From assembly GCA_039630575.1 (NCBI GenBank), contig JBCNUW010000002.1, positions 88,192 to 152,191 on the forward strand: DNA of 64,000 nt, written 5' to 3'. How positions within the stretch are numbered: position 1 is the first letter of the stretch; every line of letters starts with the position of its first letter. The translations under genes were made by a program, and so were the position numbers. Below, piece by piece: positions 21,274-48,284 of the stretch. The notes below the pieces were generated by a model. That model did not search any database. It saw only the letters and a program-made list of their open reading frames with translations, and was not told where the DNA came from. Source of the stretch: Candidatus Hydrothermales bacterium (GTDB taxonomy: Bacteria; Hydrothermota; Hydrothermia; Hydrothermales; JAJRUZ01).

Positions 21274-21294
21274 CCAGGGATTTGAACCCATTGG
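21274..21294 (-). promoter_or_regulatory. tRNA T-arm-like hairpin in tuf leader
   Basis: Minus strand CCA-AT-GGG-TTCAAAT-CCC-TGG, core 21277-21289, 20 nt before ATG; TAAAAT at 21309-21314. Confidence 0.75.
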
Positions 21295-21341
21295 GTCCTT
21301 TCAAAATAATTTTAAAATTTTAAAATAATAATTTAATTATT

Positions 21342-23390
21342 TTAATATAAAAATTCTTTTTTTTCAAGTTTAGCTTCTCTAAATGAACTAACCTTCATCC
21401 AAATTCCTGCCTTTCCTTTTGTGTGTGATCTTAAAACAGTAACATATCCAAAAGTATTTTTAAGGGGCATCTCAGCAACTATTTTTATAATGTCAAAACC
21501 TTGTAAAATATCCTTTTCTATTATTTCTGCTTCTCGCTGCATGAGATCCTGAATCACATTCCCGATAAATTCGTGTGGCACAGTTATCTCTAAATAAGAA
21601 TAGGGTTCAAGTAATACGGGTTCCGAAGTTTTTATCAATTCTTTTCCAGCCTCATGTATTGCTAATCTCAAACCTAATGGAGTTGTTCTTTCTATATTAT
21701 ATACTCTTTTAAGAATCATTTTTACATCTATTAACGGGTAACCTGCTATTACACCAAAATCAAGAAGCTCTTTCATAGAGCTATAAGCCACTTCTTTCAA
21801 CTCTCCTTCTAAATTCAAGTTTTCATCTATCAAAATTTCGTTTCTCATAGAGCTTCTTATTGGTTCAACTTTTAATAGTACTTTACCGTACTGTTCCTCT
21901 CCACCTATATTTTTCTTGATTTCTTTTATAATTTCTCCACTTATACTTATACTCTCCCTATAATGAACCTGAGGTTTTAATGCTCTAAAATCTAATTTAT
22001 GGTCTCTTTTTAACCTATCCAATATAATCTCAAGATGAAGCTCTCCCATTCCTGATATTATAATTTGACCGGTTTCCTCGTCAATTTTTAAATTAAAGGT
22101 TGGATCCTCTTCTACCATCCATTTTAATCTTTCCTCTATTTTTTTGAAATCTTTTGAAGAAATTGGCTCTATAGCCTGTGAAACTACGGGTTCAGGAAAA
22201 AGCATCTCTTCATATAAAATTGAGTGTTCATGTGAACAAATAGTGTCTCCAGTCTTTATTTCTTTTGGACCTACTATTCCAACTATTTCACCACATATAG
22301 CTTCCCTTATTGCGTTTTTTTTATTTGCATGAAGTCTGTAGAGACGTTGAATTCTTGTAACTTCATTTGTTCTTGGATTATATATCTTCTCCCCTTGAGA
22401 AATTTTTCCTGAATATATTCTTACATAACACAACTTACCCATATCTTCAAAAATTTGAACCTTAAAAACAACTCCACTAAAATGGTCATTTGGATCAGGA
22501 TTTCTAAAAATTTCATTTCTAGTTAAAGGATCTATCCCTCTTATTTTTCCTCTATCAATTGGAGATGGCAAATATTCACAGATTGCATCTAAAAGTGGTT
22601 GAATACCTTTGTTTTTTAAGGCTGAACCAATCAAAACTGGTAAAAATCTTTTCTCTAAAACTCCCTTTCTTATCGCATTGTTAACTTTAAAAGAGTTTAC
22701 AAAGCCCTTTTCATAATATTCATCTGCAATACTCTCATCTATTTCCGAAAGAGTTATAATCATATCTTCATAATAATTTTTAGCATCTTCCTTTAGACTA
22801 TCTATCGGTAAAAAAGAATATTCGATTCCTAATTCATCTTTATCCCAGAGTATTTTTTTATTTTCAACAAAGTGAAAAACACCTAAAAATTGAGTTTCCA
22901 AACCAACTGGCCATTCAAGTAAAAGAGGTTTAATTTTAAATTTTTTTTCAATTTGATTCAAAACTTTTAAGTGGTCAGCACCCTGTCTATCCATTTTATT
23001 TATGAAAGCTATTCTCGGTACATTAAACTTTTCAGCTTGTCTCCATATTGTCTCAGATTGTGGTTCAACTCCCTCTACTGCTGAAAAGATTATCACAAGA
23101 CCGTCAAGAATTCTCATAGACCTTTCAACCTCTACTGTAAAATCTACATGTCCAGGTGTATCAACAATGTGTATTAGGTAATTTTTCCATTCGCAAAAAG
23201 TTGCAGCAGCCTGAATTGTAATTCCTCTCTCTTTCTCCTGAATCATATAGTCCATTGTGGCTGTACCCTCATCCACCTCACCCATTCTATGTATCCTATG
23301 AGTATAAAAAAGAATCCTCTCAGTAGTTGTAGTTTTACCTGCATCTATATGAGCAGCAAAACCGATATTACGTATTTTACTTATGTCCAT
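21342..23390 (-). CDS. fusA: Elongation factor G family protein with divergent domain IV (EF-G2/recycling-like)
   Basis: AHIDAGKTTTTERIL, ERGITI, DTPGHVDF, NKMD, GMGELHL; between rpsG and tuf. Confidence 0.9.
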   Translation of the reverse strand: MDISKIRNIGFAAHIDAGKTTTTERILFYTHRIHRMGEVDEGTATMDYMIQEKERGITIQAAATFCEWKNYLIHIVDTPGHVDFTVEVERSMRILDGLVIIFSAVEGVEPQSETIWRQAEKFNVPRIAFINKMDRQGADHLKVLNQIEKKFKIKPLLLEWPVGLETQFLGVFHFVENKKILWDKDELGIEYSFLPIDSLKEDAKNYYEDMIITLSEIDESIADEYYEKGFVNSFKVNNAIRKGVLEKRFLPVLIGSALKNKGIQPLLDAICEYLPSPIDRGKIRGIDPLTRNEIFRNPDPNDHFSGVVFKVQIFEDMGKLCYVRIYSGKISQGEKIYNPRTNEVTRIQRLYRLHANKKNAIREAICGEIVGIVGPKEIKTGDTICSHEHSILYEEMLFPEPVVSQAIEPISSKDFKKIEERLKWMVEEDPTFNLKIDEETGQIIISGMGELHLEIILDRLKRDHKLDFRALKPQVHYRESISISGEIIKEIKKNIGGEEQYGKVLLKVEPIRSSMRNEILIDENLNLEGELKEVAYSSMKELLDFGVIAGYPLIDVKMILKRVYNIERTTPLGLRLAIHEAGKELIKTSEPVLLEPYSYLEITVPHEFIGNVIQDLMQREAEIIEKDILQGFDIIKIVAEMPLKNTFGYVTVLRSHTKGKAGIWMKVSSFREAKLEKKEFLY

Positions 23391-23458
23391 TTGGCCAATT
23401 TTTGGAATTTAATTTTAAAAAAATTAACTTTTTCTTTTAAAAAAAAATTTTATACTTT

Positions 23459-23926
23459 TTACCATCTAAAGTGTGCAAAGGCTCTGTTTGCCTCTGCCAT
23501 TTTGTGGGTATTTTCTCTTATCTTAACTGCTCCGCCTTCATTATTTGCAGCACTTATTAACTCCTTTGCCAACTTCTCTATCATTCCTCTTTCTCCTCTC
23601 TCTCGCGCTGATTTTATAATCCATTTTATAGCAAGAGAAACTTGCCTTTTCGGTCTTACCTCAACTGGCACCTGATAGGTAGCTCCTCCAACTCTCCTCG
23701 GTCTCACCTCAAGAGTAGGCTTTACATTCTCTATTGCTTTTTCAAAAACTTTTAATGGATCTTCACCTGTAAGATCTTGAATTCTCTTCATTGCATTATA
23801 AAATATTTTCATCGCAATACTTTTTTTACCATCCCACATCAAGTTGTTAATAAACTTCATAACAAGGGGTGAATTATAAATAGGATCTGTTGGTATTTTT
23901 CTTTCAGGTGCTCTTCTTCTTCTCAT
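23459..23926 (-). CDS. rpsG: 30S ribosomal protein S7
   Basis: [26 protein letters not shown]. Confidence 0.98.
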
Positions 23927-23931
23927 ATTTT

Positions 23932-24312
23932 TTAACCCTCCTTCTTTTTCCTTTTAGTACCATAAAGACTTCTTGAACTTGCCCTATTTGCCACACCTGC
24001 ACAATCATAAACTCCTCTAACTATATGATACTTTACTCCAGGTAAATCTTTTACTCTCCCTCCTCTAACAAGAACGACTGAGTGTTCTTGAAGGTTGTGC
24101 CCTTCTCCCGGTATGTAGGCAATCACCTCTCTACCATTCGAAAGTCTCACTTTAGCTACCTTCCTTAAAGCTGAGTTTGGTTTTTTGGGGCTAGTTGTAT
24201 ATACACGTATACAAACTCCTCTTTTTTGTGGACATGATTCAAGAGCAATACTTTTAGATTTTTTTCTCTTCTTTTTTCTTTTATGTCGTATAATTTGGTT
24301 TATAGTAGGCAT
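23932..24312 (-). CDS. rpsL: 30S ribosomal protein S12
   Basis: [26 protein letters not shown]. Confidence 0.98.
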
Positions 24313-24341
24313 TAATTTTTTTAAAATGCTATTTTTATTAT

Positions 24342-24394
24342 GGATTTGAACCGAAATTTAATATAATTATAAAAGTTAAAAAGAAAAAAATCAA
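24342..24394 (-). promoter_or_regulatory. str operon promoter followed by T-arm-like hairpin
   Basis: Minus strand TTGATT (24389-24394), 17 nt, TATAAT (24366-24371), then GGTTCAAATCC (24342-24352), 29 nt before rpsL ATG; no SD. Confidence 0.75.
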
Positions 24395-24826
24395 ATAATT
24401 TTATAATTTTATAACATTTTAGACTGATTAAAATATTACTTTAAAGGTTCGTAATGTATAATTCCTTAAACATTTAAAACTTTTTTAAAGAACATGATAA
24501 ATTAACATTCACAATCTTACTTTGTAATAAATAAACAAAAACAAATTTTTCCTAATATGAATCTACAGATTACTTTCTCAACTCTTACATAAAACTTTCT
24601 TTGGATTTAATTAGATTATGATCATTAAAAACTATGATCTATTTTCATACAAAGTTTACAAGGTAACATCTTAAACTCATCTCATCTAACTTTTTTTACT
24701 TTCCTATCTTTGTCGGAGTTCTATCAGCGATTTTTACACTTCAGAGTTCGAATAAAATATCTAAAATAAGTAAGTTCCCTTTAACTTTTGACTTACATCA
24801 TTCTTTTATTATAAACATCAAAACAA

Positions 24827-24855
24827 TTGAAAATTCTGAAAATTTCATTTATAAT
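24827..24855 (+). promoter_or_regulatory. Sigma70 promoter of the tRNA-Thr operon
   Basis: TTGAAA (24827-24832), 17 nt, TATAAT (24850-24855). Confidence 0.8.
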
Positions 24856-24863
24856 AGAAAACT

Positions 24864-24936
24864 GCCCGCGTAGCTCAGGCGGTAGAGCACTTCCTTGGTA
24901 AGGAAGAGGCCGCCGGTTCGAGTCCGGCCGCGGGCT
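24864..24936 (+). tRNA. tRNA-Thr(GGT), CCA not encoded
   Basis: Acceptor GCCCGCG/CGCGGGC, D arm GCTC/GAGC, anticodon arm CTTCC-TTGGTAA-GGAAG, T arm GCCGG-TTCGAGT-CCGGC. Confidence 0.97.
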
Positions 24937-24949
24937 TTTAAATTAAAAA

Positions 24950-26035
24950 TTGGAACTGAAAACTCCCAAGAAAAGCTTTAGAAAAGCTCTTGAAGTACTT
25001 AAAAAAGGAGGAGTTATAGCTATACCAACTGACACAGTTTCAGGACTTGTAACACCATATTGGTCTCAAGAGGGAGTTAAAAGAATCTTTTCTATTAAAA
25101 AAAGAGAAAGTGAAAAAACTCTTGGTCTTTTTATCTCTCAATCAAAAGAACTTAGACTCTTTACAAAAAACATAACAGAAACAAGAAAAAGATTGATACA
25201 TAACTTGTGGCCAGGATCTATATCTCTTTTATTTAAAGCAAAAGAAAATTTACCTGAATATATTGTCCATAGAGAAAAAAAAACAGTATCTGTTAGAATC
25301 CCAAATCATCCTGTTCCACTTTCCCTTTGCAGTTTAGCAGGACCTCTTGTACAAACTTCAGTTAATATCTCTGGTCATAAAGAAATAAATGATTATGAAG
25401 AGATTGAAAAAAAATTTGGTAAATATGTTGATTTTGTTTATCCTCAAAACTCTTATGGAAATTCTGCCTCAACAATTCTTGACGTATCCAAATATCCCTT
25501 TTTGTTATTACGAAAAGGACCTATAGGTATAACTCAGATTGAAAGTTTGCTTTTAAAAAAAATAAAAATTTCAAAATCCATCAAAACAAACATCCTATTT
25601 GTTTGCAGTGGAAACACATGTAGATCTCCAATGGCTATGGGTATAATGTATTCACTTTTAAAACAAAATCTAAGGGATTTGGTAAATATTAAATCAGCAG
25701 GAGTTGACACAATAGATGGACTTTTAATTGCTGAAAATACACTTAAAGTACTTGAGAAGGTATACAACTTAGATCTCAGTTACTATAGAACTAGGAAACT
25801 AAAAAAAGATGATCTTGAATGGGCAGACTTCATTTATGTTATGGAAAAAAAACACTTAAGAGAAATTCAAAAAATGGGATTTTATGAAAAAGCAAAACTG
25901 TTAAACCTCATAGATGGATTTAAAGATATACCTGACCCATTCGGTAAGGACTATAGCTACTATCTTTATGTATCAAAACTAATTGAAAAAAATATAAAAT
26001 TGATTGTTAAAGAAATAGAGTATAGATACTCATGA
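24950..26035 (+). CDS. tsaC: Fusion of TsaC/Sua5 threonylcarbamoyl-AMP synthase and LMW phosphatase (YwlE-like)
   Basis: PTDTVSGL, KKR, WPG, RIP, TSVNISG, ASTILD, LLRKG; then FVCSGNTCRSPMA and DIPDPFG. Confidence 0.88.
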   Translation: MELKTPKKSFRKALEVLKKGGVIAIPTDTVSGLVTPYWSQEGVKRIFSIKKRESEKTLGLFISQSKELRLFTKNITETRKRLIHNLWPGSISLLFKAKENLPEYIVHREKKTVSVRIPNHPVPLSLCSLAGPLVQTSVNISGHKEINDYEEIEKKFGKYVDFVYPQNSYGNSASTILDVSKYPFLLLRKGPIGITQIESLLLKKIKISKSIKTNILFVCSGNTCRSPMAMGIMYSLLKQNLRDLVNIKSAGVDTIDGLLIAENTLKVLEKVYNLDLSYYRTRKLKKDDLEWADFIYVMEKKHLREIQKMGFYEKAKLLNLIDGFKDIPDPFGKDYSYYLYVSKLIEKNIKLIVKEIEYRYS

Positions 26036-26997
26036 GGTATAAAGAAGCTGGGGTAGATCTTAAAAAAGCCGAAAGTGTTTCAAAAATTTTTAAAATAATA
26101 ACAAAACAAAAGGAAAGATTTTCAGGTATATTTGATCTTGGAGACTATTTTGTTGCTGCTACATGTGATGGAGTAGGTACTAAAACTCAAGTGGCAAGAA
26201 TTGCCCGTAAATTTGAAGTTCTTGGTGAAGATATAGTGAATCACTCGGTAAATGATCTTTTATGTCAAGGTGCAAAACCTATTTTTTTCCTAGATTATAT
26301 TGCTTCATCAAGCCTTGATTTGAGAGTTGTAAGAAAAATAGCAAAAGGAATATTAAAAGCCCTTAGAGAGAACGGAAATATAGCACTTTTAGGTGGAGAA
26401 ACTGCAGAAATGCCAGACATATATAATAAAAACGAGTGGGACATAGTTGGTTTTTGTGTTGGGCTTTTAAAAAAAGAGAATCTATTACCAAAAAAAATCA
26501 AAAAGGGAGATTTACTTTTAGGCTTACCATCAAATGGACTTCATACAAATGGGTACTCACTTGCACGTAAAGTTCTTTTAAAAAAATATGATTTAAATAA
26601 AAAATTTGAAGGAAAAACACTTAAAAGTCTTTTACTTAAGCCACATAAAAGTTATTTCAAGATACTTTATCCTCTTATAGAAAAAAAACTTATAAAGGGT
26701 TTAGCTCATATAACTGGAGGTGGTATAGAAGGAAATCTAAAGAGAATTTTGCCAAATAGCTTAGGTTTTGATATAGATATAAGAGATGTAGAAAAACCCA
26801 TAATTTTTGAGATAATTCAAAAAGAAGGAAATGTTCCTTATGATGAAATGCTAAAGGTATTCAATTTAGGAATAGGAATGATTGTAGTTATAGATGTAAA
26901 GGAATTAGAAAATATAAAAAATTTTTTGATAAAAAAAGGGGAAAAATTTTACATAATTGGTGAAATAACAAAAGGGAGAAAAAGAGTTATATTTTGA
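26032..26997 (+). CDS. purM: Phosphoribosylformylglycinamidine cyclo-ligase
   Basis: YKEAGVD, DGVGTK, GGETAEMP, SNGLHTNGYSLAR, HITGGG. Confidence 0.95.
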   Translation: MRYKEAGVDLKKAESVSKIFKIITKQKERFSGIFDLGDYFVAATCDGVGTKTQVARIARKFEVLGEDIVNHSVNDLLCQGAKPIFFLDYIASSSLDLRVVRKIAKGILKALRENGNIALLGGETAEMPDIYNKNEWDIVGFCVGLLKKENLLPKKIKKGDLLLGLPSNGLHTNGYSLARKVLLKKYDLNKKFEGKTLKSLLLKPHKSYFKILYPLIEKKLIKGLAHITGGGIEGNLKRILPNSLGFDIDIRDVEKPIIFEIIQKEGNVPYDEMLKVFNLGIGMIVVIDVKELENIKNFLIKKGEKFYIIGEITKGRKRVIF

Positions 26998-27021
26998 GAA
27001 TTATAAAAAAGGAGGAAAAAA

Positions 27022-29445
27022 ATGACTGAGAGGCTGATTAATGCACCTATAGAAGAGGAAATGTCAACAAGTTATATCGACTATGCGATGAGTGTAATTG
27101 TAGGTAGAGCTCTTCCTGATGTGAGAGATGGATTAAAACCTGTTCACAGAAGAATTTTATACTCAATGTACGAATCAGGTCTTTTACCAACAAAACCGTT
27201 CAAAAAAAGCGCAACAGTAGTTGGTGATGTACTTGGTAAATTTCATCCCCATGGGGATATGGCTGTTTACGATGCTCTTGTAAGAATGGCACAAGACTTC
27301 TCACTTAGATATCCACTGATTGAAGGTCAGGGAAATTTCGGTTCTATTGATGGAGATCCTCCAGCAGCATATAGATACACTGAAGTAAGGCTTTCAAAGA
27401 TAGCTCTGGAAATGCTTAAAGATTTAGATAAAAACACTGTTGATTTTGTGCCAAATTTCGATGGGAGGTTAAAAGAACCTGTTGTTTTACCATCACTTTT
27501 ACCAAACTTGCTTGTAAATGGCTCAACAGGAATAGCTGTAGGAATGTCAACTAATATACCACCCCATAACTTATCTGAAACCGTTGATGCACTTATATAT
27601 TTAATCGACAACCCAGATTGTAAAGACGAAGATCTATTCGAAATTATAAAAGGACCCGACTTTCCTACAGGAGGTTTGATATTAGGTAAAAAGGGGATAC
27701 ATGATTACTTTAAGATTGGAAGGGGACAAATAGTAATTAGAGGTAAATACTATATTGAAGAAAAGGGCAGAAAGAAAATTATATTTACTGAAATTCCTTA
27801 TCTTGTAAACAAAGCAAGCTTACTTGAAAGAATTGCAGATCTTATAAGAGATAAAAAAATAGAAGGTATACAGGATTTAAGGGATGAATCAGATAGAGAT
27901 GGTTTAAGAATTGTAATTGAACTTAAAAAGAACATTTCTGAGAAACTTATCTTAAATCAACTTTTTAAATACACACAGCTTCAGGATAGATTTAATGTAA
28001 TTATGTTGAGCCTTGTTGAAAATGAACCAAAAGTTTTATCTTTAAGAGAAATTTTAAACTACTATCTTAGACACAGAGAGGAGGTTACAAGAAGGAAAAC
28101 AGAATTTTTACTTAAGAAAGCTCAGGAAAGAGCCCATATTTTAGATGGTCTTAAAGTTGCTTTAAAAAACATCGATGAAGTTATCAAAATAATTAAACAC
28201 TCAAAAGATCCAAAAGAAGCAGGTGAAAAGTTGAGAAAAGTTTATAAACTTACAGAATTACAGACTCAGGCAATATTAGAAATGAGACTACAAACTCTTA
28301 CAAAACTCGAAATTTCAAAAATTGAGGAAGAGTATGAGAAAATAATTAAGGATATTCAGAAGTATAAAAGAATTTTAGAGGAAAGAAAAATTCTCTTTGA
28401 GGAAATAAAAAAAGAATTAATTGAACTAAAGGAAAAACACGGAGATAAAAGAAAAACAGAGATCTTAGATCAGGAACCAGAGGAAATTGACATCGAAAGT
28501 TTAATCAAAAAAGAAAAAATTCTTATTTTACTTTCAAAAAATGGTTATATAAAAAGGATACAAGGTTCATATTTAAAAACAAAGTCAAGGGGAACTCAAG
28601 GTCAAAAAGGAGTTCTGTTAGATGAGGATGACTTTCCGGAGGATGTTTTTTATTCTTTTTCCCATGATTATGTGCTTTTTGTATCAAATAAAGGAAAAGT
28701 TTACTCTTTAAAAGCCTATGAAATTCCTGAGAGTGGGTTAAGAGGTAAGGGAAAACCTGTAAATACAATTCTTAATTTACCAGATGGAGAGAAAATTGTC
28801 GATATGATCCCAATATCAGAATTCAAAAAGGGTGTTTATCTTTTTCTTATAACAAGAAAAGGTATAATTAAAAAAACTGACATTGAACTTTTTAAAAATG
28901 CTGGAAAAAGAGGTATCACAGGTCAAATCCTAAAGGAAAAAGATGAGACAATAAAAGGTTTACTTGTAACAGATGAAGATGAAGTTATTCTCTTAAAGGA
29001 AAACGGTCTTGCATCGAGAATAATATCAAAAGCAGTAAGACCCATGGGAAGGTCGAGTTATGGAATAATAGGAATAAAAACCAGCGATGCCGAATGTATA
29101 TCAGGAGCTGTAATAAAGGAAAATACCACCATTCTTGTTGTAACAGAAAAGGGTTACGGTAAAAGATTTAAACCAGAGGAAATTCCAGCAAAAGGAAGAG
29201 GTGCTAAGGGTGTAATTGTACAAAAGGTAAATGAAAAAACTGGAAAAGCTATTTGGTTAAAAGCCTTTGATGATAAAGATCATCTTGTATTGCTAACAAG
29301 TTCATCAAAACTATTAAGACAAAAAGTAGAAGAAATTCCTTTAATTTCAAGAGCAACAAGAGGTGTAAGGCTTATAAAAGTAGAGAAGGAAGATAAGGTT
29401 GTTGGTTGTGCAAAAATTCCTTATGAGGAGGAAATGGATGTTTAA
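27022..29445 (+). CDS. gyrA: DNA gyrase/topoisomerase IV subunit A
   Basis: [28 protein letters not shown] catalytic Tyr, beta-pinwheel CTD repeats. Confidence 0.9.
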
Positions 29446-30059: not shown

Positions 30060-30605
30060 TTGTATTACATAAAAAGGGAAGAATGGTTAAAAAAAAGTAT
30101 AACAGAAAGGATAAAGAATGTTAATATAAAACCTATTGTTATCATTCACCATACAGCAACACCAAAAAAGGAATATCAGGGGGATATCAATTATTTAGAT
30201 AGGATTCACAGAGAGAAAGGTTTCATAATGATCGGTTATCATTTTATTATAGCTCCTGATGGTAAAGTATTTGAAGGAAGAAAGATTAACGAGGAGGGAG
30301 CTCATACAAAGAGGTTTAACAGCTTTTTAGGAATTGCATTAATTGGAAACTTTGAGGAAGAGGAAATGGAAAAAAGGCAGTTATTTTCCCTATTAAATTT
30401 TATGAGTTATTTAGAAAAGATTTTTTTTATAAATAAATTTTCTTTTCACTTTATGCTGAATGAAAAAACTTTATGTGGAAAAAAAATTTTTGACAAGTTA
30501 GTGAAAAATAGAAATAAAAGAGTGTTTAAATTTCCAGATGATTTGTTTTATAATTTAATAGGTTCAAATCCATTTACAGAAGATTTTAGTAAAAGGAGGG
30601 ACTAA
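30060..30605 (+). CDS. N-acetylmuramoyl-L-alanine amidase, amidase_2/PGRP family
   Basis: IIHHTA, IGYHF, EGR, GAHT, GIALIGNF, H..KTLC. Confidence 0.8.
   Translation: MYYIKREEWLKKSITERIKNVNIKPIVIIHHTATPKKEYQGDINYLDRIHREKGFIMIGYHFIIAPDGKVFEGRKINEEGAHTKRFNSFLGIALIGNFEEEEMEKRQLFSLLNFMSYLEKIFFINKFSFHFMLNEKTLCGKKIFDKLVKNRNKRVFKFPDDLFYNLIGSNPFTEDFSKRRD
30549..30571 (+). promoter_or_regulatory. mdh -10 box and T-arm-like hairpin
   Basis: TATAAT 30549-30554, GGTTCAAATCC 30561-30571, then SD AAGGAGG and ATG 30607. Confidence 0.65.
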
Positions 30606-30606: not shown

Positions 30607-31542
30607 ATGAAGGAAAAAGTATTCATAATAGGAGCAGGCTATGTTGGAGCTGAGTGTGCAAATGATTTAGCACTTAAGGACTTCTGTGATATAGTTTTGA
30701 TTGACATTCTTGAGGGGATCCCTCAGGGTAAATCTCTTGATATGACCCATTCAAACCCTATCAGGTATGTATCACCAAATATAAGGGGTCAAAATAGTTA
30801 CGATGGAATAGAAGAAGCAAAAGTAGTTGTTATAACAGCAGGAGTTCCAAGAAAGCCCGGAATGACAAGAGAAGAATTACTTGATATCAATTTTAATATT
30901 GTTAAAAGTGTTACAGAGGAAATAAAAAAAAGAAATAAAAAAGCAATATTAATAGTAGTTACAAATCCACTTGATGCAATGACCTACGCAGCTTATAGAA
31001 TTTCTGGGTTTGAAAGGGAAAGAGTGATAGGAATGGCTGGTGTTCTTGATTCAACAAGGTTTAGAGCTTTCATTGCTATGGAACTTGGAGTTGCCTATGA
31101 AGATGTTTCTGCAATAACACTTGGGACACATGGTGATTTAATGGTTCCTCTACCAAGGTATGCAACAGTAGGAGGAATACCTGTGAGTCATTTAATACCT
31201 AAAGAAAAATTGGATTCAATCGTTGATAGAACAAGAAAAGCTGGAACTGAAATTGTATCTCTTTTAAAAACAGGTAGTGCTTATTATGGTCCTGGAACCT
31301 CAACAGCTATAATGGTTGAATCAATAATCAAAGATAAAAAAAGAGTACTTTCAGCATCAGTTCTTTTAAAAGGAGAATATGGTATTAATGATATTTTTGT
31401 TGGAGTTCCTGTAATTTTAGGAGAAAAAGGAGTTGAAAAGGTTATTGAAATGAAACTTGAACCAGAGGAACTTGAAGCTCTTAAAAAATCTGCAGAACAT
31501 GTTAAAAAAATGCAGGAAGAAATTGATGCTAAATTGAAATAG
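30607..31542 (+). CDS. mdh: Malate dehydrogenase, LDH-like
   Basis: IIGAGYVG, PRKPGMTR, TNPLD, LDSTR, HGD. Confidence 0.95.
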   Translation: MKEKVFIIGAGYVGAECANDLALKDFCDIVLIDILEGIPQGKSLDMTHSNPIRYVSPNIRGQNSYDGIEEAKVVVITAGVPRKPGMTREELLDINFNIVKSVTEEIKKRNKKAILIVVTNPLDAMTYAAYRISGFERERVIGMAGVLDSTRFRAFIAMELGVAYEDVSAITLGTHGDLMVPLPRYATVGGIPVSHLIPKEKLDSIVDRTRKAGTEIVSLLKTGSAYYGPGTSTAIMVESIIKDKKRVLSASVLLKGEYGINDIFVGVPVILGEKGVEKVIEMKLEPEELEALKKSAEHVKKMQEEIDAKLK

Positions 31543-33554: not shown

Positions 33555-35279
33555 CTATTCAGTAACAACAAGTTTTAAATTACCCTGGATATCTCCCTTA
33601 TATTTCAAGAAGTATATTCCAGATTTGAGGTTAGAAACCTTTATTTCGTTATTTCCTTCTTTAACGGATACGGTTTTAGATGTAATTCTCTTTCCTGATA
33701 CATCAAAAATATCAAATACCATTTTTCCATTTAAAGGTGATACAAATCTGATAGCTCCTTTATCAAAAACATTTCCATTAAAGGTTAGCTTGTTCAAAAC
33801 TAATTTATCCTTTGAGCTTTCGAAAATACTCGTAACTGGAATATAACCTGTTAAAATATAAGTAGGTACTGTTCCGCCAAGTGCATAAGTGTTATAATGA
33901 ATATCAAGTCCCGCATTTGCACCATCCCATGCTCTTGGAACATTGAAGAGAAGCCATAATTTATAATCATTTGAAGGAGTAAATACATGCTTTATTGTGT
34001 GAACTTTATGTTCAATCTTATCATCTGTAGGTTGATTTGCCTCGTCTCTTGTAATGTTATATGGCGCAGACCAAGTAGCTCCACCATCAAGTGAATATTT
34101 TACATAGACATCAGTCCACCCATACCTACGATTAGGAACATAATCAATTGTATGGTATGCAACATAAGTAACGAAGAGTATGTTGCGAACATGATCAATT
34201 GTAAGTTCAATATTTGCAAAAAATGTTAAATCATCAGGGTCTATAATTGTATAGGTTGCTGTAGGTGTAACAAGATAAGCACCATTCCCAGAGACAAATG
34301 TATCAGTCCCAAAAACTATCGGATTTGTAAAGTAACATGTAGTTGTCAAAAGTGCCATAGGTGTTGTTGAATTAAGAAGGGCAAAATCCCAGTAATTTAC
34401 ATACCAAAGATAATCAACAATATAATCTATTCCTTGAAATCTAAAAGTATCAACTGGGACATTAAAATAAAGGGGAATACTTGTCCATGTAGCTCCATCG
34501 TCATTAGATACTTTAACAGTATCTGGTCCTACAAGAGCTGCAAGTGTCCCACCCAAATAATCCATTAGCCATACATCTCCAGGGTGGTTTGGGAAAAGTG
34601 TAGCTGGAGGGTCAGGATCAATAAAAGCAAGTCTCCACCACCAATGAGTGAAGTAGTTATTATCTTGACCTACAAGAAAATTAACAAAATTTCCCATATC
34701 GTTTGAGGCATTTCCAAAACTCCTATATCCTACAAATCCAGGAGTCTGAATGAAGTAGGTATAAATATTTCCTTGTGGTAAAGCACCATCAGATGGAACT
34801 GTAGAAATAGCACCTTCATAAGGTGTTCTAACTGTAGAGTATGTTAGAATAAAAGTGTCACTGTTACCCATCCATGGACCTACATTCGGATATCTTCCGG
34901 CTCCATCTATATTGTATGGCCATATTCTTGTCCAAGTGTTCCCACCATCTTGAGAAAAAACAAGAGCTAAACGTCCTGTTCCAGGATAAGCAGGGTTATC
35001 AGATAATCTTCTATAAGTGAAAAATACACAGGATTGATCAGGTGATGTATTTATTGGTTTTGGTGCTGTATACAAAGTTGAATACTGATTGGGCATAGTA
35101 TCTATATAAGCAATAGGTATTGTAGGATACGTCGGAAGTGCGGAAGGATAGATATCTGAAGTATTTTTAAAATCCTCCCGATCAATTATTAAATGATCCT
35201 TTACAATAGGTCTTATGGTTCCTGCAAACAGAAATCCTACAAGAAAAACAGTCAGTAGTACTTTTTTATTTTTACTCAT
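33555..35279 (-). CDS. Secreted Asp-box (BNR) beta-propeller protein with T9SS type-A-like CTD
   Basis: Signal peptide; SQDGGNTW, SNDDGATW, SLDGGATW; C-terminal IFDVSGKRI..LKSGIYFLK..KLVV. Confidence 0.8.
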   Translation of the reverse strand: MSKNKKVLLTVFLVGFLFAGTIRPIVKDHLIIDREDFKNTSDIYPSALPTYPTIPIAYIDTMPNQYSTLYTAPKPINTSPDQSCVFFTYRRLSDNPAYPGTGRLALVFSQDGGNTWTRIWPYNIDGAGRYPNVGPWMGNSDTFILTYSTVRTPYEGAISTVPSDGALPQGNIYTYFIQTPGFVGYRSFGNASNDMGNFVNFLVGQDNNYFTHWWWRLAFIDPDPPATLFPNHPGDVWLMDYLGGTLAALVGPDTVKVSNDDGATWTSIPLYFNVPVDTFRFQGIDYIVDYLWYVNYWDFALLNSTTPMALLTTTCYFTNPIVFGTDTFVSGNGAYLVTPTATYTIIDPDDLTFFANIELTIDHVRNILFVTYVAYHTIDYVPNRRYGWTDVYVKYSLDGGATWSAPYNITRDEANQPTDDKIEHKVHTIKHVFTPSNDYKLWLLFNVPRAWDGANAGLDIHYNTYALGGTVPTYILTGYIPVTSIFESSKDKLVLNKLTFNGNVFDKGAIRFVSPLNGKMVFDIFDVSGKRITSKTVSVKEGNNEIKVSNLKSGIYFLKYKGDIQGNLKLVVTE

Positions 35280-35298
35280 TTAAAACCTCCTTTTTTTT

Positions 35299-35333
35299 AG
35301 GGAATTGAACCCTTCTTTGTTTTTTATATTATA
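35299..35333 (-). promoter_or_regulatory. Internal promoter and T-arm-like hairpin
   Basis: Minus strand TATAAT (35328-35333), then A-GGG-TTCAATT-CCC-T (core 35300-35312), 20 nt before ATG 35279; SD AAGGAGG. Confidence 0.75.
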
Positions 35334-42775: not shown

Positions 42776-42790
42776 CTTTTACCTCCTTTT

Positions 42791-45700
42791 TTAAAATCCA
42801 CCAATTTGAACATAGAAACCTATTCTTGTCTGTCTCCTTGCAGACCATACACCAATGTTTTTGACCTCACCCTCAGGATCACCAAACTGATCGTACCAAT
42901 TTTCATCTTCGATGCTAACTAAGTTTCTATAGTTAAATATGTTATAAATATCCACGAAAAGTTGTAAGTTTCCTTTACCTCTTAGTAAAGGAAAGTTCTT
43001 ATAAATTCTTAAGTCAGCATCTTTTGTAGATGGAAGTCTCCTTGCATTTATTAGTTCAATAGCATCCCTCTCTGACCTAATAGGAGGTGTCCATGGATAA
43101 CCTGAACCGTAACTGTATTGAAGTGAAATACCATAGTCAGAAAGCCTTAAAAACTTCCTATTCTTTGGAACTATCCAGGAAATAACTGCATTTATAGTAT
43201 GGGTCTGATCCCAATCAAGAGGAGATTCCCTTGGAGGAAGAGGATAACCTAGCCACTGCCAATAATAACCTAAATATGGAGAAGAGAAGGAACCTCTTGC
43301 CACCTGGAATGTATAGTTTATATTAAGTGAAAGATAGGGTATAAAGGTTCCAGCAGGTCTTTTAATTATCTCTATTTCAATTCCCCTTGAAGAACCATAG
43401 TCCTCATTATAAAAAGTTGTAACATTAGTTAAAGGATCTACTTTATAAAACTTTGTTCTTGCCCAATTCTGGATATCCTTGTAGAATGCAGTAACATCTA
43501 CAATAAATTCAGGCGTGAATCCATGCTTAACCCCAAGTTCATAAGAAACTGTTTTTTCTGGCTTAAGTTTTGGATTACCAATTATGGGGAAAGCACCTGT
43601 TACTACGTAATTAAAGTTTGTCTGATTATATGATGGAATCTGATAATAGTGCCCATAGGTAAAATGCAAAACATCCCTTTCAGTAATAGGATGAGATACA
43701 CCAATTCTTGGAGAAACAATCCAGTAAGGCTTTGTATTCTCAGCTACTGAAAAGTATTTAACACCATACACAGGATCAACTACAAAGGCATCCTGTGGTC
43801 TTGTCTCAAGAATAGGTGAATAATAACCATCATTATCTATATAATCAAACCTTACACCAACTCTTGCGTACATTCCTTCCATTTCAATTTTATCTCTCAA
43901 AAAGAAGGCAAACTGATAAGGCTTTACCTTATGAGCATTCAACCAATCAACAAAGGTATAAGTAGTATCAAAAGATCTCCTTGAAAGTGGAGGATTAACC
44001 ATCTGAAGATAAATATTTCCTCCTGAGGCAAAATCAACATCATAGACCATAAGGTTAATCCTCTTAAACTCAGCTCCCATCAGAATCTCATGTCCAGGAG
44101 CAGTTTTAGTTTTCTTTGTGAGCTGAGCTGTCATCTTCCAAGATAGGGTAAAGTGATTGTTTCTTAAATAACCCCATTGATCCCTCTCAAAATTATGGGG
44201 ATAAGGTAAATAAAGGTTACCAACAGATAAAATTGTCCTTCTTATTTGTGAACCTGGTGGTAGAAAACTCATTCTTTGAGTTTCAAAAAATCTCCAATCT
44301 AGCTGTAAAGGATAAGGATAGTATACTCCTTGCATATCTACAAAAGTATCTATACTTCCATCTGGAAGTACCACTTCAATTACATCAAAATCTTGAACAA
44401 AACTCTGACCCCATCCGTATCTGTTTAGGGGGGCATTCATATCTGTTGGCCACCATTGAGGATGTGCTGCACTCTGTCCAGGATAAAAACCATAGACAAA
44501 ATCTTCCCACCAGAAGAACGGAAGTTCTACATAACCTTCTTTCTCATTAACATTAAAATTCTCCCTCTTTAAATTTGTCATCTTTGCTATAGAGTCAATT
44601 CCATACCAATAATTAGGATCTATAACCCATGTACCTCTAACAGGGTCATAATAAACTCTCTTAAAGTAATCGATATCTATTTCAGCGAATCCATCAAGAT
44701 CTCTATCATCAAAATCGTCTACACCATCTTTATCCATATCTTCAAATATATTTCTCTTTTGAGACCTCTGGAAAAACCCAAAGTTTATCTCGTTCATATA
44801 TTTCTGAGCTACAAGCCAGTTTATACCACCAGAGAAACTCGTCAAATACCTATGAAACTCAAAACTTAAATCAGGTAATAGTCTAAATTGAGGATCATAA
44901 ACTCCAAATCTTTCAAACCTGTAAAAACCTGTAAAATAAAGAAGAAGATAAAGTGAAGGTCTTACATCCAATCTCCATGAAAGACCGTAGTTTTTTATCC
45001 TCTTTTTCTCATCAGCATAAACTGGAAATCTTCCCTTGTGAGTAATGTAATCACCACTTATCAGAAAGCTTGCAGCCTCTCTCCTCATAAAGGGAATGGG
45101 ACCAGATAGAGAAAATTCATTTAATATTTCATCCCTTCTGTGTCTTTTTCCTTTAGTAGTTCCCATATCCTTATTTATACCAAGCAGGAAATCCCTGATA
45201 TAGTCTCCCCTTTCTACATTAAAGAAACTATTAATACCTTCTCCGAGAAAACTTAAATTCGTTGTTGAAAATCTATATTCTGAACTGTATTTATCCCCTC
45301 CACCTTTTGTAACAACATTTATCATACCTCCTGCAGCACTTCCTTGATCAACGTCAAATCCACCAGTTGAAACACCTGCTTCCTCCATTGCAAGAAGTGG
45401 TATTCCAGGAGCTGTAAAGGCTGTAAATGGATCCCTTACCTCAACACCATTTACAACATAAACAACCTCATCAGGTCTTGATCCCCTTATGTGCAACCCT
45501 CCCCTTTCCACAACACCCACAGAAATCTCAACAACACCTTGAATACTCATTACAGGAATGTTAGCCACTTCCTCTTTCTTCATAATTTTTCTTGATTCTG
45601 GAAGATCAGCTCTTATTAGCTCTTCTTTTGCCTCTACAACAATAGGTGGAACCTCAACAGTAGTTGGTTTTAAGGCAACATTCACCTCAACAGTTCTATC

Positions 45701-45979
45701 GGCTTCTACAGCAACACCTTTTATAATACTCGGCTGATATCCCGCATAGGTCACTTCAATATCATATTTACCAGGTGGAACTTTTAAGATGACAAAATAT
45801 CCTTGGTCATCAGTATATGTTCCCATTTGGGTTCCAACTATTTTTACGATTGCGAAGGGGAGACCCTCTCCGGTCGTTGCATCAGTGACACGACCGGAAA
45901 TTTTTCCTGTAGTTCCTGCCCACAGGATACTTACTAAAAATCCTGCAAGCAGGAAACTGCACATTATTTTTAACCTCAT
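42791..45979 (-). CDS. TonB-dependent receptor with N-terminal carboxypeptidase-regulatory-like domain
   Basis: GTTGKISGRVTD, plug HIRGSR..YVVNG, GGF..GG.INVVTK, SPRIGVSHPI, GNPKLKPEKT..YELG, NIFN, terminal Phe. Confidence 0.92.
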   Translation of the reverse strand: MRLKIMCSFLLAGFLVSILWAGTTGKISGRVTDATTGEGLPFAIVKIVGTQMGTYTDDQGYFVILKVPPGKYDIEVTYAGYQPSIIKGVAVEADRTVEVNVALKPTTVEVPPIVVEAKEELIRADLPESRKIMKKEEVANIPVMSIQGVVEISVGVVERGGLHIRGSRPDEVVYVVNGVEVRDPFTAFTAPGIPLLAMEEAGVSTGGFDVDQGSAAGGMINVVTKGGGDKYSSEYRFSTTNLSFLGEGINSFFNVERGDYIRDFLLGINKDMGTTKGKRHRRDEILNEFSLSGPIPFMRREAASFLISGDYITHKGRFPVYADEKKRIKNYGLSWRLDVRPSLYLLLYFTGFYRFERFGVYDPQFRLLPDLSFEFHRYLTSFSGGINWLVAQKYMNEINFGFFQRSQKRNIFEDMDKDGVDDFDDRDLDGFAEIDIDYFKRVYYDPVRGTWVIDPNYWYGIDSIAKMTNLKRENFNVNEKEGYVELPFFWWEDFVYGFYPGQSAAHPQWWPTDMNAPLNRYGWGQSFVQDFDVIEVVLPDGSIDTFVDMQGVYYPYPLQLDWRFFETQRMSFLPPGSQIRRTILSVGNLYLPYPHNFERDQWGYLRNNHFTLSWKMTAQLTKKTKTAPGHEILMGAEFKRINLMVYDVDFASGGNIYLQMVNPPLSRRSFDTTYTFVDWLNAHKVKPYQFAFFLRDKIEMEGMYARVGVRFDYIDNDGYYSPILETRPQDAFVVDPVYGVKYFSVAENTKPYWIVSPRIGVSHPITERDVLHFTYGHYYQIPSYNQTNFNYVVTGAFPIIGNPKLKPEKTVSYELGVKHGFTPEFIVDVTAFYKDIQNWARTKFYKVDPLTNVTTFYNEDYGSSRGIEIEIIKRPAGTFIPYLSLNINYTFQVARGSFSSPYLGYYWQWLGYPLPPRESPLDWDQTHTINAVISWIVPKNRKFLRLSDYGISLQYSYGSGYPWTPPIRSERDAIELINARRLPSTKDADLRIYKNFPLLRGKGNLQLFVDIYNIFNYRNLVSIEDENWYDQFGDPEGEVKNIGVWSARRQTRIGFYVQIGGF

Positions 45980-45996
45980 ATAAACCCTCCTTGCTC

Positions 45997-46605
45997 TTAT
46001 TTTGTTAATCTAAATATAAAAGGAATAACAACCCTAACTGAAACTGGTATACCTGCCTGTTTGGCAGGTTTAAATAAACATTGAAGGGCAGCCCTTTCTA
46101 CAGGCTCCCTAAATATTTCATTATCAACAAAAATCTTTTCTATTTTAACAACCCTACCATCTGGTCCAACTATCACAAGAACCTTTGCAGTTCCCTGTAT
46201 CCCTAACTTTCTTGCAACCTCAGGATACTCTGGCTCAACCTTTTTTATCAATACAGGCTTTTCTTCAACCTCAAACTCATTAAATACTTGACCTGGCTCT
46301 GGTAAAGGTATATCAATTTCTACATCACCTGCTGTACCCTCTTGTATCGTTTCCTGAACATTTTCTTCCTCTTCCTCCTCTGCCTCCTCAATTTCTACAG
46401 GCAATTTAGGCTTTGGTGGTGGTTGAGGAAGCTGAATCTCCTCGAGCTTTTCTTGAATATTTTCCATAAGTATGTCTCTTTGCCCTCTTGATACATAAGG
46501 ATTTACACTGACCTTCACCCCTAAAAACAATACTATAAAAAGAATAAAGGTCAGTGAAAGAGCTATTTGGGTAATAAGATCCCCTTTTTCTCTTGGATCA
46601 AACAT
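45997..46605 (-). CDS. tonB: Energy transducer TonB
   Basis: One TM helix, Pro/Glu-rich linker, PEYPEVARKLGIQG..FKPA..VVIPFIF. Confidence 0.92.
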   Translation of the reverse strand: MFDPREKGDLITQIALSLTFILFIVLFLGVKVSVNPYVSRGQRDILMENIQEKLEEIQLPQPPPKPKLPVEIEEAEEEEEENVQETIQEGTAGDVEIDIPLPEPGQVFNEFEVEEKPVLIKKVEPEYPEVARKLGIQGTAKVLVIVGPDGRVVKIEKIFVDNEIFREPVERAALQCLFKPAKQAGIPVSVRVVIPFIFRLTK

Positions 46606-46648
46606 AATTTATTTTAGGAAATTAAATTGTTATTTTTCAACAAAAAAA

Positions 46649-47062
46649 TCATTTTTTTTCAAAATCAGTTCTGAAACTTATTCTCAAAGCTTTTGCCTCT
46701 CTTAAAGACTCAGTTACCATATTTACATATTTATATTTAACCCTTTTATCTGCCATTATCATTGTTAAAAGCTGAGGATCTTCAAACATGAGCCTTCTAA
46801 ATTCCTTTTCTATATAACTTGTATCTACTGGTAAATCATGAACAAAAATATCACCATTGGAAGATATCCATATGTAAGCTAAATGTTTATGCTTCTTTAT
46901 CCTTTGCGTTTGTTCAGCCTGAGGAAACTGAATAACCTTAAGTCCCCTTTCTTTCCTAAAAACAGTTGTTAACATAAAAAATATTATAAGAAGAAAGGCT
47001 ATATCAGCCATTGAAGCAGTAGGTATAACTACCTTCGGCTTAGCTATTTTCTCTATTTTCAT
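46649..47062 (-). CDS. exbD: ExbD/TolR family protein
   Basis: PTASMADIAFLLIIFFM, ADKRVKY. Confidence 0.93.
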   Translation of the reverse strand: MKIEKIAKPKVVIPTASMADIAFLLIIFFMLTTVFRKERGLKVIQFPQAEQTQRIKKHKHLAYIWISSNGDIFVHDLPVDTSYIEKEFRRLMFEDPQLLTMIMADKRVKYKYVNMVTESLREAKALRISFRTDFEKK

Positions 47063-47565
47063 ATTTCCTCCCCTATTCCTTTAATTGAAATCTTTCTCGG
47101 TATTTTCTCATCATCGTCCAAAATACCATTTCTATTTTTATCAAGAAGACCCCTTTTCCACATTATTGAATCAACTTCTTCATAGGAGAGCAAAACTTCA
47201 TCAAATACATCTATCATAATATTATAAACTGAATTGACATTTGTTTTAATAAAGATAACTATTTTATCTGGATTGTTAAGTATTTCATTTTTAATCTTCT
47301 CTCTTAACATGCTAAAGGGAGTTTCAGTGAGTTCTTCCTTAAAGAAAATTTTCCCCTCAGGATTTATAAATATAGATAAGAGATTTTCCTTTTTAATTTT
47401 TATTACCCTTTCCTCTGACTTTTCTGGCAAAATAATCTTTAAACCTCTATCTCTTGAAAATATAGTGGTGACCATAAAGAATATGATAAGTAAAAAGGCT
47501 ATGTCAGCCATTGAGGCAGTTGGTATCTCTGCCTCGTACTTAAATCTACCCTTAAAAAGTGACAT
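47059..47565 (-). CDS. exbD: ExbD/TolR family protein with DxNxNG insertion
   Basis: PTASMADIAFLLIIFFMVTT; second paralog. Confidence 0.9.
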   Translation of the reverse strand: MSLFKGRFKYEAEIPTASMADIAFLLIIFFMVTTIFSRDRGLKIILPEKSEERVIKIKKENLLSIFINPEGKIFFKEELTETPFSMLREKIKNEILNNPDKIVIFIKTNVNSVYNIMIDVFDEVLLSYEEVDSIMWKRGLLDKNRNGILDDDEKIPRKISIKGIGEEI

Positions 47566-47569
47566 AATT

Positions 47570-48235
47570 TTATTTTACTTTAGTTTCAAGAACATATTCA
47601 ATTAAAGTGTTTGCTGCTTCCTCCATTTCTCTTGAAAAAGCATTAATCCTTGAGGAAAAAAAGGTGTGAAAAATTGCAACTGGTGCTGCTATTAAAAGAC
47701 CTGTAGCAGTTGTAATTAGAGCTTCAGAAATTCCTGCAGCTACAAGAGTTGGCTCAACTTCTCCAGCCGCTGCTACTGCTTGAAAGGCTCTAATCATACC
47801 TGTTACTGTTCCTAAAAATCCTAAAATAGGAGCTATAGTTGTAAAGGAAGCAAGCCAAAGCATACCCCTATCAAGGAAAGCAAGCTCAGTTGTTGCTCTC
47901 CTTGCAACATTTTCTTCTATTATTTCCTTAGAATTTCCTGCTTTCTCAAGAACAGCCTGACAGATTTTTGAAACAACAGAAGTATTCCTTGAGCAATAGT
48001 CCATTGCTTCCGACAAACCACTAGTTTCAATCAAATCAATAACATCAACAACAAATCTTCTTGGATTTGTTCTTAACCTAAAAAGAGTATAAAACCTTTC
48101 AATAATTATCACAACAGATAATATAGCAACAAGCAGTAAAAGCCACATTACTCCTCCACCCTTATGGAAATAGTCTACAAGACTTTCTATTACTCCTTGC
48201 TGGCCTATTATTAAAGTTGTTAAAATTCCACTCAT
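47570..48235 (-). CDS. exbB: ExbB/TolQ/MotA proton channel
   Basis: GGGVMW, APILGFLGTVTGMIRAF, GISEALITTATGL. Confidence 0.93.
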   Translation of the reverse strand: MSGILTTLIIGQQGVIESLVDYFHKGGGVMWLLLLVAILSVVIIIERFYTLFRLRTNPRRFVVDVIDLIETSGLSEAMDYCSRNTSVVSKICQAVLEKAGNSKEIIEENVARRATTELAFLDRGMLWLASFTTIAPILGFLGTVTGMIRAFQAVAAAGEVEPTLVAAGISEALITTATGLLIAAPVAIFHTFFSSRINAFSREMEEAANTLIEYVLETKVK

Positions 48236-48253
48236 TTTAATTTAAATTGTTTT

Positions 48254-48284
48254 TGTGGAATTGAACCCTTTACAGAGTCTATCA
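48254..48284 (-). promoter_or_regulatory. Extended -10 and T-arm-like hairpin before exbB
   Basis: Minus strand TG-A-TAGACT (48276-48284), then TGT-AAAG-GG-TTCAATT-CC-ACA (core 48257-48267), 21 nt before ATG; no SD. Confidence 0.7.

Follow-up and report, generated by a model that had tools for sequence, protein, structure and literature searches.

Why does the core of a tRNA T-arm stand in front of protein-coding genes? The question is raised by a stretch of 64,000 nucleotides (nt) from a Candidatus Hydrothermales bacterium (contig JBCNUW010000002.1, positions 88,192 to 152,191; hereafter the window), part of genome G000 (1.89 Mb, 30% GC, 94.7% complete), in which an 11-nt sequence equal to tRNA positions G52 to C62 precedes tuf, rpsL, mdh and two further genes. 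Genome comparison indicates that this motif is a real, selected and family-restricted RNA element belonging to none of the known families tested, and it looks like a ribosome-binding signal. We consider it moderately probable that it is a family-specific, cis-acting translation-initiation element which replaces the Shine-Dalgarno (SD) sequence and would lie near the mRNA exit of the ribosome.

The motif in the window, the genome and the family

The initial annotation had reported five leader copies of GGTTCAA(A/T)TCC, located 20 to 35 nt before the ATG. Their coordinates and strands are all correct, five is the exact count in the window, and the distances measured from the last C (listed below) fall within the claimed range. 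The gene names were also upheld, as was the absence of an SD at tuf, rpsL and exbB, while AAGGAGG is present at mdh and at the gene for a protein with the C-terminal domain (CTD) of the type IX secretion system (T9SS). The degenerate pattern GGTTCRANTCC occurs at 7 sites in the window, where shuffles predict 0.19 (0/100 shuffles reached 7); beyond the five leader copies, these are the T-loop of a tRNA-Thr and an antisense site in fusA.

21278..21288, minus strand: T-arm mimic core (G52 to C62) of the tuf leader, 21 nt to the ATG at 21256; 53 nt past the fusA stop; no SD
20042..21256, minus strand: tuf, EF-Tu, 404 amino acids from the ATG at 21256
24342..24352, minus strand: T-arm mimic core of the rpsL leader, 29 nt to the ATG at 24312; no SD; only two contiguous pairs in G000
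24366..24371, minus strand: TATAAT, putative -10-like hexamer (sequence only), ending 13 nt before G52 of the rpsL copy
23932..24312, minus strand: rpsL, ribosomal protein S12
24915..24925, plus strand: genuine tRNA-Thr T-arm core (tRNA gene 24864-24936), 24 nt to an SD-less TTG at 24950
30561..30571, plus strand: T-arm mimic core of the mdh leader, 35 nt to the ATG at 30607
30593..30599, plus strand: predicted SD AAGGAGG of mdh, 3' of the hairpin
35301..35311, minus strand: T-arm mimic core of the T9SS-CTD protein gene, 21 nt to the ATG at 35279; four-pair stem
35286..35292, minus strand: predicted SD AAGGAGG of the T9SS-CTD gene
48257..48267, minus strand: T-arm mimic core of the ExbB/TolQ-family gene, 21 nt to the ATG at 48235; 14 nt past the upstream stop; no SD
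23062..23072, plus strand: antisense match within fusA; no start downstream; taken as background

At gathering scores, an Rfam scan of the window returned 5S rRNA and tRNA only and left the five leaders unmatched, with no hit to the yjdF riboswitch, the T-box or any other cis-element model; with ARAGORN and Rfam the sole tRNA is tRNA-Thr, the mimics failing as tRNA genes (RF00005). The mdh copy is contained in the 3' end of another open frame (30060-30605), which precedes mdh and matches no family.

Genome-wide, G000 holds 136 matches to GGTTCRANTCC, 43 in tRNA or tmRNA genes and 93 elsewhere, compared with 3 each for the reversed and the complemented control patterns. With a motif-blind gene caller made for this analysis, 60 of the 93 non-tRNA copies fall 8 to 40 nt before a called start (1.4% of positions expected), against 6/93 on the opposite strand; the genome-wide bias in strand and in distance to the start that the initial annotation had proposed as a check was thus found. 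The core GGTTNNANNCC leads 148 of 1,627 called genes. At 129 of these (~8% of genes, about 1 in 12) it is a non-tRNA mimic on the sense strand, 17 to 39 nt before the start codon, and at 19 it is the T-arm of one of the 47 tRNA or tmRNA genes, at a spacing like that of the mimics; these counts are not motif-blind, as the start was selected anew from the candidates around the called one. One of the 19 is in the window, where the TTG directly after tRNA-Thr opens a gene (24950-26035, plus strand) for TsaC (t6A synthesis) fused to a low-molecular-weight phosphatase domain.

Between genes, GGTTCNANNCC matches 100 times in 21,937 positions at 15 to 42 nt before starts, never in 14,090 positions at 0 to 14 nt or in 32,360 at 43 to 100 nt, and 6 times in 78,610 at 101 to 400 nt. 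Sixteen intergenic copies remained unassigned, of which 13 stand 18 to 26 nt before an open reading frame (ORF) missed by the caller, two resemble tmRNA 3' ends and one has no start; in all, about 14 copies besides those of the called genes precede caller-missed genes, e.g., short ribosomal-protein-like ORFs. Antisense copies equal the reversed-pattern control (22 each). As for the sequence itself, single substitutions at positions 52, 53, 54, 58, 61 and 62 gave no copy before starts, and at 55 only one: G52, G53, U54, U55, A58, C61 and C62 are fixed, and positions 56, 57, 59 and 60 tolerate change. The claim that N59 is the only variable base was therefore wrong, since among the 129 copies position 56 is C in 114, position 57 is A in 93, T in 20, G in 9 and C in 7, and position 60 is T in 98, C in 22, G in 7 and A in 2.

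Within the phylum, the motif is dense in one family and nearly absent elsewhere. The broad pattern has 83 to 160 matches in the six genomes of this family and 15 to 29 in 25 further genomes of the class, where they are mostly tRNAs; the strict pattern has 13 to 36 in the six, none in 252 and one or two in 14 of 266 other genomes of the phylum. Mimics lead 134/1,697 genes in G000, 30/310 in G005 (another genus of the family, sampled at 14%) and 8/1,821 in G006, a member of the sister family. Of the 20 G000 motif genes for which G005 has an orthologue, 18 carry the motif there too, the core being preserved while unrelated flanks turn over; tuf and rpsL keep it in 6/6 family genomes, again with turnover of loop and flanks, and tuf has an SD instead in 4/4 genomes of the sister family. 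Conservation in orthologous leaders, another proposed check, was thus observed, and the suggestion of a cis element that is shared across the lineage, has the T-loop sequence, is biased in strand and occupies a fixed place before starts is supported within this family and not across the phylum. Beyond these genomes, a strict-pattern scan of public genome contigs gave, among 80 of at least 113 stretches, 10 leader-like cases (4 WOR-3 records, 3 tRNA-like, 3 isolated), and the ORFs beside the four leader copies in WOR-3 records match G000 proteins at 36 to 81%. In viral stretches (at least 118 matches), tRNA genes made up most of the cases followed by a start, and no contig had a run of mimics among the matches listed.

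These data bear directly on the idea that the copies are chance matches or remnants of tRNA 3'-end duplications, whether integration sites or a small mobile repeat. The 3' ends of tRNA genes are common integration targets, and the core is identical to them; nevertheless, the 93 non-tRNA copies against 3 + 3 in controls, the missing acceptor-strand sequence and pairing, the core kept in 18/20 orthologues of another genus amid unrelated flanks and the fixed distance to starts make this origin scarcely credible, position and conservation largely refuting it. As a side observation, G000 has a complete tmRNA (C35:4000-4357) and two more tmRNA-like 3' ends (C22:16378, minus strand; C83:173, plus strand), one of which directly precedes tRNA-Leu; a second copy or an integration site is possible there.

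The initial annotation also held that the motif precedes core genes, which is borne out by the G006 orthologues of 92 motif genes. They include translation factors (EF-Tu, an EF-G, EF-P, RRF, IF3, HPF), ribosomal proteins (S1, S6, S8, S12, S15, S20, S21, L7/L12, L31) and other core functions (RpoA, RpoD, Rho, DnaK, DnaN, ACP, IHF, a cold-shock protein), together with many enzymes of amino-acid and acyl-CoA catabolism and envelope proteins. Conservation is higher in motif genes than in the rest (median identity 58.7 versus 51.6%, p=3e-4). Separately, the S10-spc-alpha ribosomal protein cluster of G000 is split over three contigs or loci (C12:103587-108226, C5:45016-48047, C14:30454-34558), its pieces adjoining unrelated genes.

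Spacing to the start codon and the Shine-Dalgarno sequence

From C62 to the start, the distance is 17 to 30 nt in leaders without an SD (median 20, n=87) and 21 to 39 nt in those with one (median 26, n=42); the stronger the SD, the longer this distance (Spearman -0.59, n=129), and the gap between hairpin and SD is never below 6 nt. Median spacing is 23 nt for copies within upstream coding sequence (n=21), 21.5 just past a stop (n=20) and 22 in isolated leaders (n=44). The spacer to the start is A/U-rich, with A at -3 in 69% of 83 SD-less copies.

A -10 hexamer had been described before the motif, and this holds for 54/86 non-internal copies (control window 21/86), at a distance spread over about 6 to 21 nt, and not for the operon-internal ones, which lie in, or at most 10 nt from, upstream coding sequence: these make up 43 of the 129 copies, and only 9/43 have the hexamer (control 4/43). 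Because so few operon-internal copies are preceded by a -10, the motif is not always at the 5' end of the transcript. Apart from the motif genes, G000 has a leaderless class, with a -10 hexamer ending 5 to 7 nt before the ATG in 102 of 534 first-type non-motif genes.

The many copies lying 6 to 21 nt past a -10 hexamer could suggest an element acting on DNA or during transcription, i.e., an operator, an initially transcribed sequence, a pause site, or an ops-like site where a NusG paralogue would be loaded and bring ribosomes to SD-less mRNA. Elemental pause and ops spacing have GG at -11/-10 and a pyrimidine at -1; the GG and pyrimidine of the motif fit this, and its stem shows no G-U excess. 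We nevertheless regard such an element as very unlikely. The motif is strictly sense (antisense 22, control 22), its flanks covary without a consensus, and the base after C62 (position 63) is G in 3% of copies, unlike the G+1 of a pause site; G000 and G001 each have a single NusG (two occur in G005 and in the motif-less G006), which does not fit an RfaH/ops-type site. A DNA operator is likewise at odds with a sense-only motif, a -10 distance spread over about 7 to 20 nt and 43 operon-internal copies. Finally, the spacing to the ATG is unchanged in operons, and real tRNA T-arms fill the same slot.

A second reading makes the motif a stabiliser or processing signal of mRNA: a protein-bound T-arm would block a nuclease (RNase Y, exonucleases) or mark a cut, and more mRNA would let the SD decay. 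Abundant core gene products are common among the targets, promoter-proximal arms lie near the predicted 5' end (-10 at 54/86), RNase Y is present, and the 17-nt minimum distance could be ribosome clearance. Moreover, a metallo-hydrolase resembling RNase Z (245 amino acids, G000:C78:10557-11291, plus strand) is found in 6/6 family and 0/5 sister-family genomes. That protein, however, scores 130 against a cut-off of 293, apparently has no tRNA-binding arm (no match over the arm region) and has relatives, 31 to 34% identical, in 5/5 genomes of another, motif-free family. RNase E/G, RNase J and an above-cut-off RNase Z were not found in G000, G001, G005, G006 and G008 (5/5, 93 to 96% complete), and RNase Z processing is difficult to accommodate, with no acceptor stem and with a cut after tRNA position 73 falling inside the SD in 13/42 SD-bearing leaders. 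Besides, 43/129 copies are operon-internal, and the zone 43 to 100 nt upstream is empty though a stabiliser would work equally there. A stabilising role thus appears unlikely, and the 5'-terminal stabiliser or cap put forward by the initial annotation is weakened by the operon-internal copies and by the missing RNase J and E/G. The RNase-Z-like protein was rejected as a proven partner because it is also present in a family without the motif. In these same five genomes, most tRNA genes have no encoded CCA, and many run straight into an ORF.

Motif genes also differ from other genes in the fate of their SD. Between G000 and G006 we obtained 1,187 reciprocal best hits, with starts paired by homology alone in 938, the others having no matched start or lying at a tile edge. 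An SD is present in 81/92 G006 orthologues of motif genes versus 30/92 in G000, compared with 359/826 versus 252/826 in non-motif pairs, and the median hybridisation energy of motif genes is -11.8 kcal/mol in G006 and -0.95 in G000. For uncoupled genes whose SD is strong in G006, it is retained in 24/75 motif genes versus 82/112 non-leaderless non-motif genes (p=3.6e-8); in a word-based test that includes leaderless genes, 18/63 motif genes retain it versus 63/111. The ExbB/TolQ-family gene of the window is a case in point, its sister-family orthologue having an 8-nt SD match. Among orthologue pairs, tRNA-led genes number 7 in G006 and 20 in G000, 3 of the latter with an SD.

Individual genes give the same picture. 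In G005, rpsG has been uncoupled from rpsL by an insertion, has a T-arm at 22 nt and has lost its SD, while the other five family genomes keep both coupling and SD. In G000 and G001, the gene upstream of trmFO starts 22 to 23 nt after a real tRNA-Gly T-arm; the tRNA-Gly of G005 lies further off, and a new mimic stands there at 23 nt. The motif itself is no SD site, since it lies 17 to 39 nt out rather than 5 to 10, and the anti-SD is the canonical CCUCC in 3/3 family 16S genes. An AAAGG 5' flank was also considered as a distant SD and rejected, because the invariant U54, U55, A58, C61 and C62 would be left unexplained.

Altogether, the SD-independent initiation enhancer, one of three options in the initial annotation, gains specific support, because SD loss is tied to the motif and the spacing follows the start codon and not the promoter. 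The opposite sign of regulation was also considered, namely, a translational operator through which a tRNA-binding protein would repress genes when free tRNA is scarce, like ThrRS at the thrS leader. The targets include S1, S6, S21, IF3, EF-Tu, EF-P, RRF and HPF orthologues, and at tuf, mdh and exbB alternative folds are predicted that would mask the motif. Such repression seems highly improbable to us: the hairpin is never less than 17 nt from the start or 6 nt from the SD and so avoids the ribosome footprint, SD loss points to a positive role, and many targets are unrelated catabolic and envelope genes.

A minimal T-arm and its possible readers

The loop has the features of a T-loop motif (closure by G53-C61, U54, U55, A58 and two bases at 59-60). 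G53, U54, U55, A58 and C61 are invariant in both the mimics and the tRNA T-arms (RF00005), the loop has 7 nt, and the G52-C62 pair occurs in 44/48 T-arms of G000. The mimics differ in having no D-arm, anticodon arm or acceptor stem, in sitting in mRNA leaders, in a stem of mostly 2 to 4 A-U-rich pairs, and in positions 56 and 57 (C56 in 114/129 versus 48/48, U57 in 20/129 versus 1/48). C56 and a purine at 57 form the tRNA elbow, and the other conserved bases build the loop itself. As the elbow bases are relaxed while the loop-building bases are kept, the receptor probably recognizes a T-arm by itself and has to assist its folding.

Nothing else of a tRNA was detected around the 129 copies: acceptor-like pairing is not enriched (5.36 versus 5.33 permuted), nor are D-loop-like words upstream (23 versus 24.8 and 2 versus 3.2 of 129), and plain GG upstream exceeds mononucleotide shuffles (65 versus 51.5) without a fixed position. 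The proposal that the L1 stalk, RNase P or a T-box would recognize the motif as an elbow is weakened, with no enriched G18/G19 partner in cis and with C56 and R57 relaxed. The pair 51:63 covaries, being Watson-Crick in 86/129 copies versus 43.6 expected (G-C 39, A-U 36, U-A 10). Pairing is weakly above chance at 49:65 (60/129 versus 47.3), not clearly so at 50:64 (59/129 versus 52.0, p=0.08) and not beyond, and other folds are preferred for tuf, mdh and exbB; bulged stem extensions, initially described for four of the five copies, are thus unsupported as a rule. At 52:62, five G000 copies have A-U and one orthologous leader switches from G-C to A-U, a compensatory change; no full swap other than A-U was found at this pair. 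The predicted alternative hairpins would hide the motif at tuf (21283-21297, minus strand) and exbB (48263-48279, minus strand) and both motif and SD at mdh (30561-30603, plus strand), which could reflect switching or an artefact of the 37 C model; a separate G/C hairpin stands just 5' of the tuf T-arm in four other family genomes.

Since the same loop is a substrate of tRNA-modifying enzymes, the hairpin could instead be a substrate or binding site of TruB, TrmFO or TrmI, with the modification or the bound enzyme as the signal, e.g., for temperature-dependent tuning, be it of translation or of stability. In Thermus, a pyrimidine at 57 disfavours m1A58 formation by TrmI, and 27/129 copies have one; C56 is missing in 15/129 (some maybe chance matches). 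TruB, TrmFO, TrmI, RNase P RNA and RNase Y are present in 5/5 genomes covering both families, the three modifying enzymes being single-copy and equally present in the motif-free sister family. The stem-loop carries GUUCNANNC in 114/129 copies (57, 59 and 60 free), which is the TruB/Pus4 consensus in the accessible part of PMC13492117, where TruB modified 3-bp (base-pair) stem-loops in vitro at 0.3 of the tRNA rate; this consensus does not explain the invariant G52-C62. Altogether, we judge a modification platform quite improbable as the whole explanation. Loop modification as such is plausible, and the platform may form part of an initiation mechanism.

A putative start signal and its place among known systems

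The simplest reading, which we hold with some confidence, is that the motif is a positive initiation element tethering the mRNA to the ribosome, directly or via an adaptor. We propose the following model. The 11-nt T-loop core with its two closing G-C pairs is observed 17 to 39 nt before the start, followed by an A/U-rich spacer, and covariation suggests that it pairs as a short hairpin. A hairpin at least 17 bases before the AUG is just outside the mRNA covered by the small subunit; this geometry would place it at the exit, by the platform, from where it would move outward when an SD helix occupies the exit site. The loop would take the T-loop fold (U54-A58 pair, U55 turn, 59-60 bulged), aided by a bound protein and possibly by TruB/TrmFO modification. 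The hairpin would then bind the ribosome or a ribosome-associated adaptor, so that the AUG could reach the P site without SD pairing. Historically, tRNA genes directly upstream of ORFs may have been the first anchors; the family would then have acquired minimal copies through point mutations in front of strongly translated genes, with the decay of many SDs. Whether this amounts to a third general mode of bacterial initiation beside SD-led and leaderless starts, in which a minimal T-arm (mimic or real tRNA) before about a tenth of genes would be read by the ribosome or a dedicated adaptor and would place the start codon without SD pairing, seems to us evenly balanced.

Several observations weigh against an initiation element. 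Within G000, motif genes are not SD-poorer than others (36% versus 34%), SD use fell in non-motif genes too (48% to 34%), and a third of motif genes still have an SD; the gene-by-gene comparison covers one sister genome (G006), and tuf four. Steric clearance could account for the lower distance limit, and genome compaction for the upper. The stems are weak, with at most 3 contiguous pairs in 78/129, and in an energy model without a T-loop term the median predicted hairpin probability goes from 0.08 at 37 C to 0.06 at 70 C. At 51:63, G-U is not favoured over A-C (4 versus 8), so that this test does not show RNA versus DNA. No receptor was found among the candidates compared: pairwise alignments of G000 and G006 revealed no new domains in S1 (six domains in both families), S2, S6, S7, S11, S18, S21, IF1, IF3, TruB or TrmI, and small basic proteins have similar lengths in the two genomes. 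The 16S rRNA has a canonical anti-SD and shows no large insertion. A precedent in favour is the 2- to 6.3-fold rise of in vitro translation obtained with cis-tRNAs located 5' of an SD; the accessible part of PMC9142559 ascribes this effect, however, to the whole tRNA fold with an SD present and not to a lone T-arm.

Beside these points, 33 fixed differences separate the 16S rRNAs of the two families, including a helix near the platform, which we take to be h26, that is 2 nt longer in the motif family; the 16S rRNA of both families also contains GGTTCAATTCG, one base off the motif, in what is presumably the h30/h31 region. A very basic protein of 80 amino acids (net charge +0.36 per residue; G000:C89:21789-22028, minus strand) with its own T-arm leader occurs in 4/6 family genomes and 0/58 other genomes of the class, with sub-threshold Mrr-like look-alikes only. 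It is a candidate nucleic-acid-binding or ribosome-associated protein, a lead and not evidence. Lists of absent genes are noisy, as even the ftsZ/mraZ region is missing from G006, in which 387 soluble proteins are found only there.

How bacteria choose the start codon of SD-less mRNAs is a long-standing question, and the answers known so far involve mRNAs that have no structure or no leader. In the family described here, a defined RNA structure appears to replace the SD genome-wide, with the sister family showing the earlier state gene by gene, and an 11-nt element with measurable spacing rules is directly testable. If our reading is correct, evolution can turn a tRNA fragment into a ribosome-binding signal that serves much of the translation machinery itself, and tRNA-modifying enzymes would be linked to bacterial mRNA control; should the receptor be family-specific, the motif would also provide a compact orthogonal translation element. 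No account of a T-arm start signal turned up in the literature searched (mostly open-access, main texts without supplements, whose motif tables could hold one); the accessible parts of the surveys of non-SD initiation (PMC5397173, PMC10783764) and of the WOR-3 papers (PMC12542636, PMC12285271) mention no such motif, that of PMC10783764 containing neither WOR-3 nor GGTTC.

Among known systems, those close in effect include the yjdF riboswitch and the engineered cis-tRNA leaders, in which, according to the accessible part of PMC9142559, a tRNA-like element 5' of an ORF enhances translation, with proposed ribosome binding. Theirs is a ligand-gated, L-shaped fold that needs the D-loop G19/G20, in one gene family and with an SD present, whereas the motif described here consists of a single arm, has no ligand pocket and precedes ~8% of genes, where it accompanies SD loss. 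The mRNA substrates of TruB, Pus4 and TRUB1 share the GUUCNANNC loop in a short mRNA hairpin; in the portions available of PMC13492117 and PMC5340967 they are scattered and eukaryotic, unlike a bacterial, selected motif before starts to which an invariant G52-C62 is added. SD-free starts and an A-rich spacer are found in the non-SD initiation of Bacteroidia, where bS21, bS18 and bS6 sequester the anti-SD (PMC9976891, PMC13000457, in part), and in leaderless or S1-dependent initiation (PMC5397173, in part), and G000 has a leaderless class as well; as far as these sources go, such leaders are unstructured and without a conserved hairpin, and the motif family keeps SDs at about a third of genes. 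Like the SD, the motif is placed relative to the start codon and found at genes with the strongest sister-family SDs (median -11.8 kcal/mol), and unlike the SD it lies 17 to 39 nt out, is a structured loop rather than a complement of the anti-SD and can coexist with an SD. Finally, tRNA mimicry in mRNA controls translation in the thrS operator and in viral tRNA-like structures, which are single-gene or viral cases that mimic the anticodon arm or the whole tRNA, whereas the motif of this family would be a genome-wide T-arm signal.

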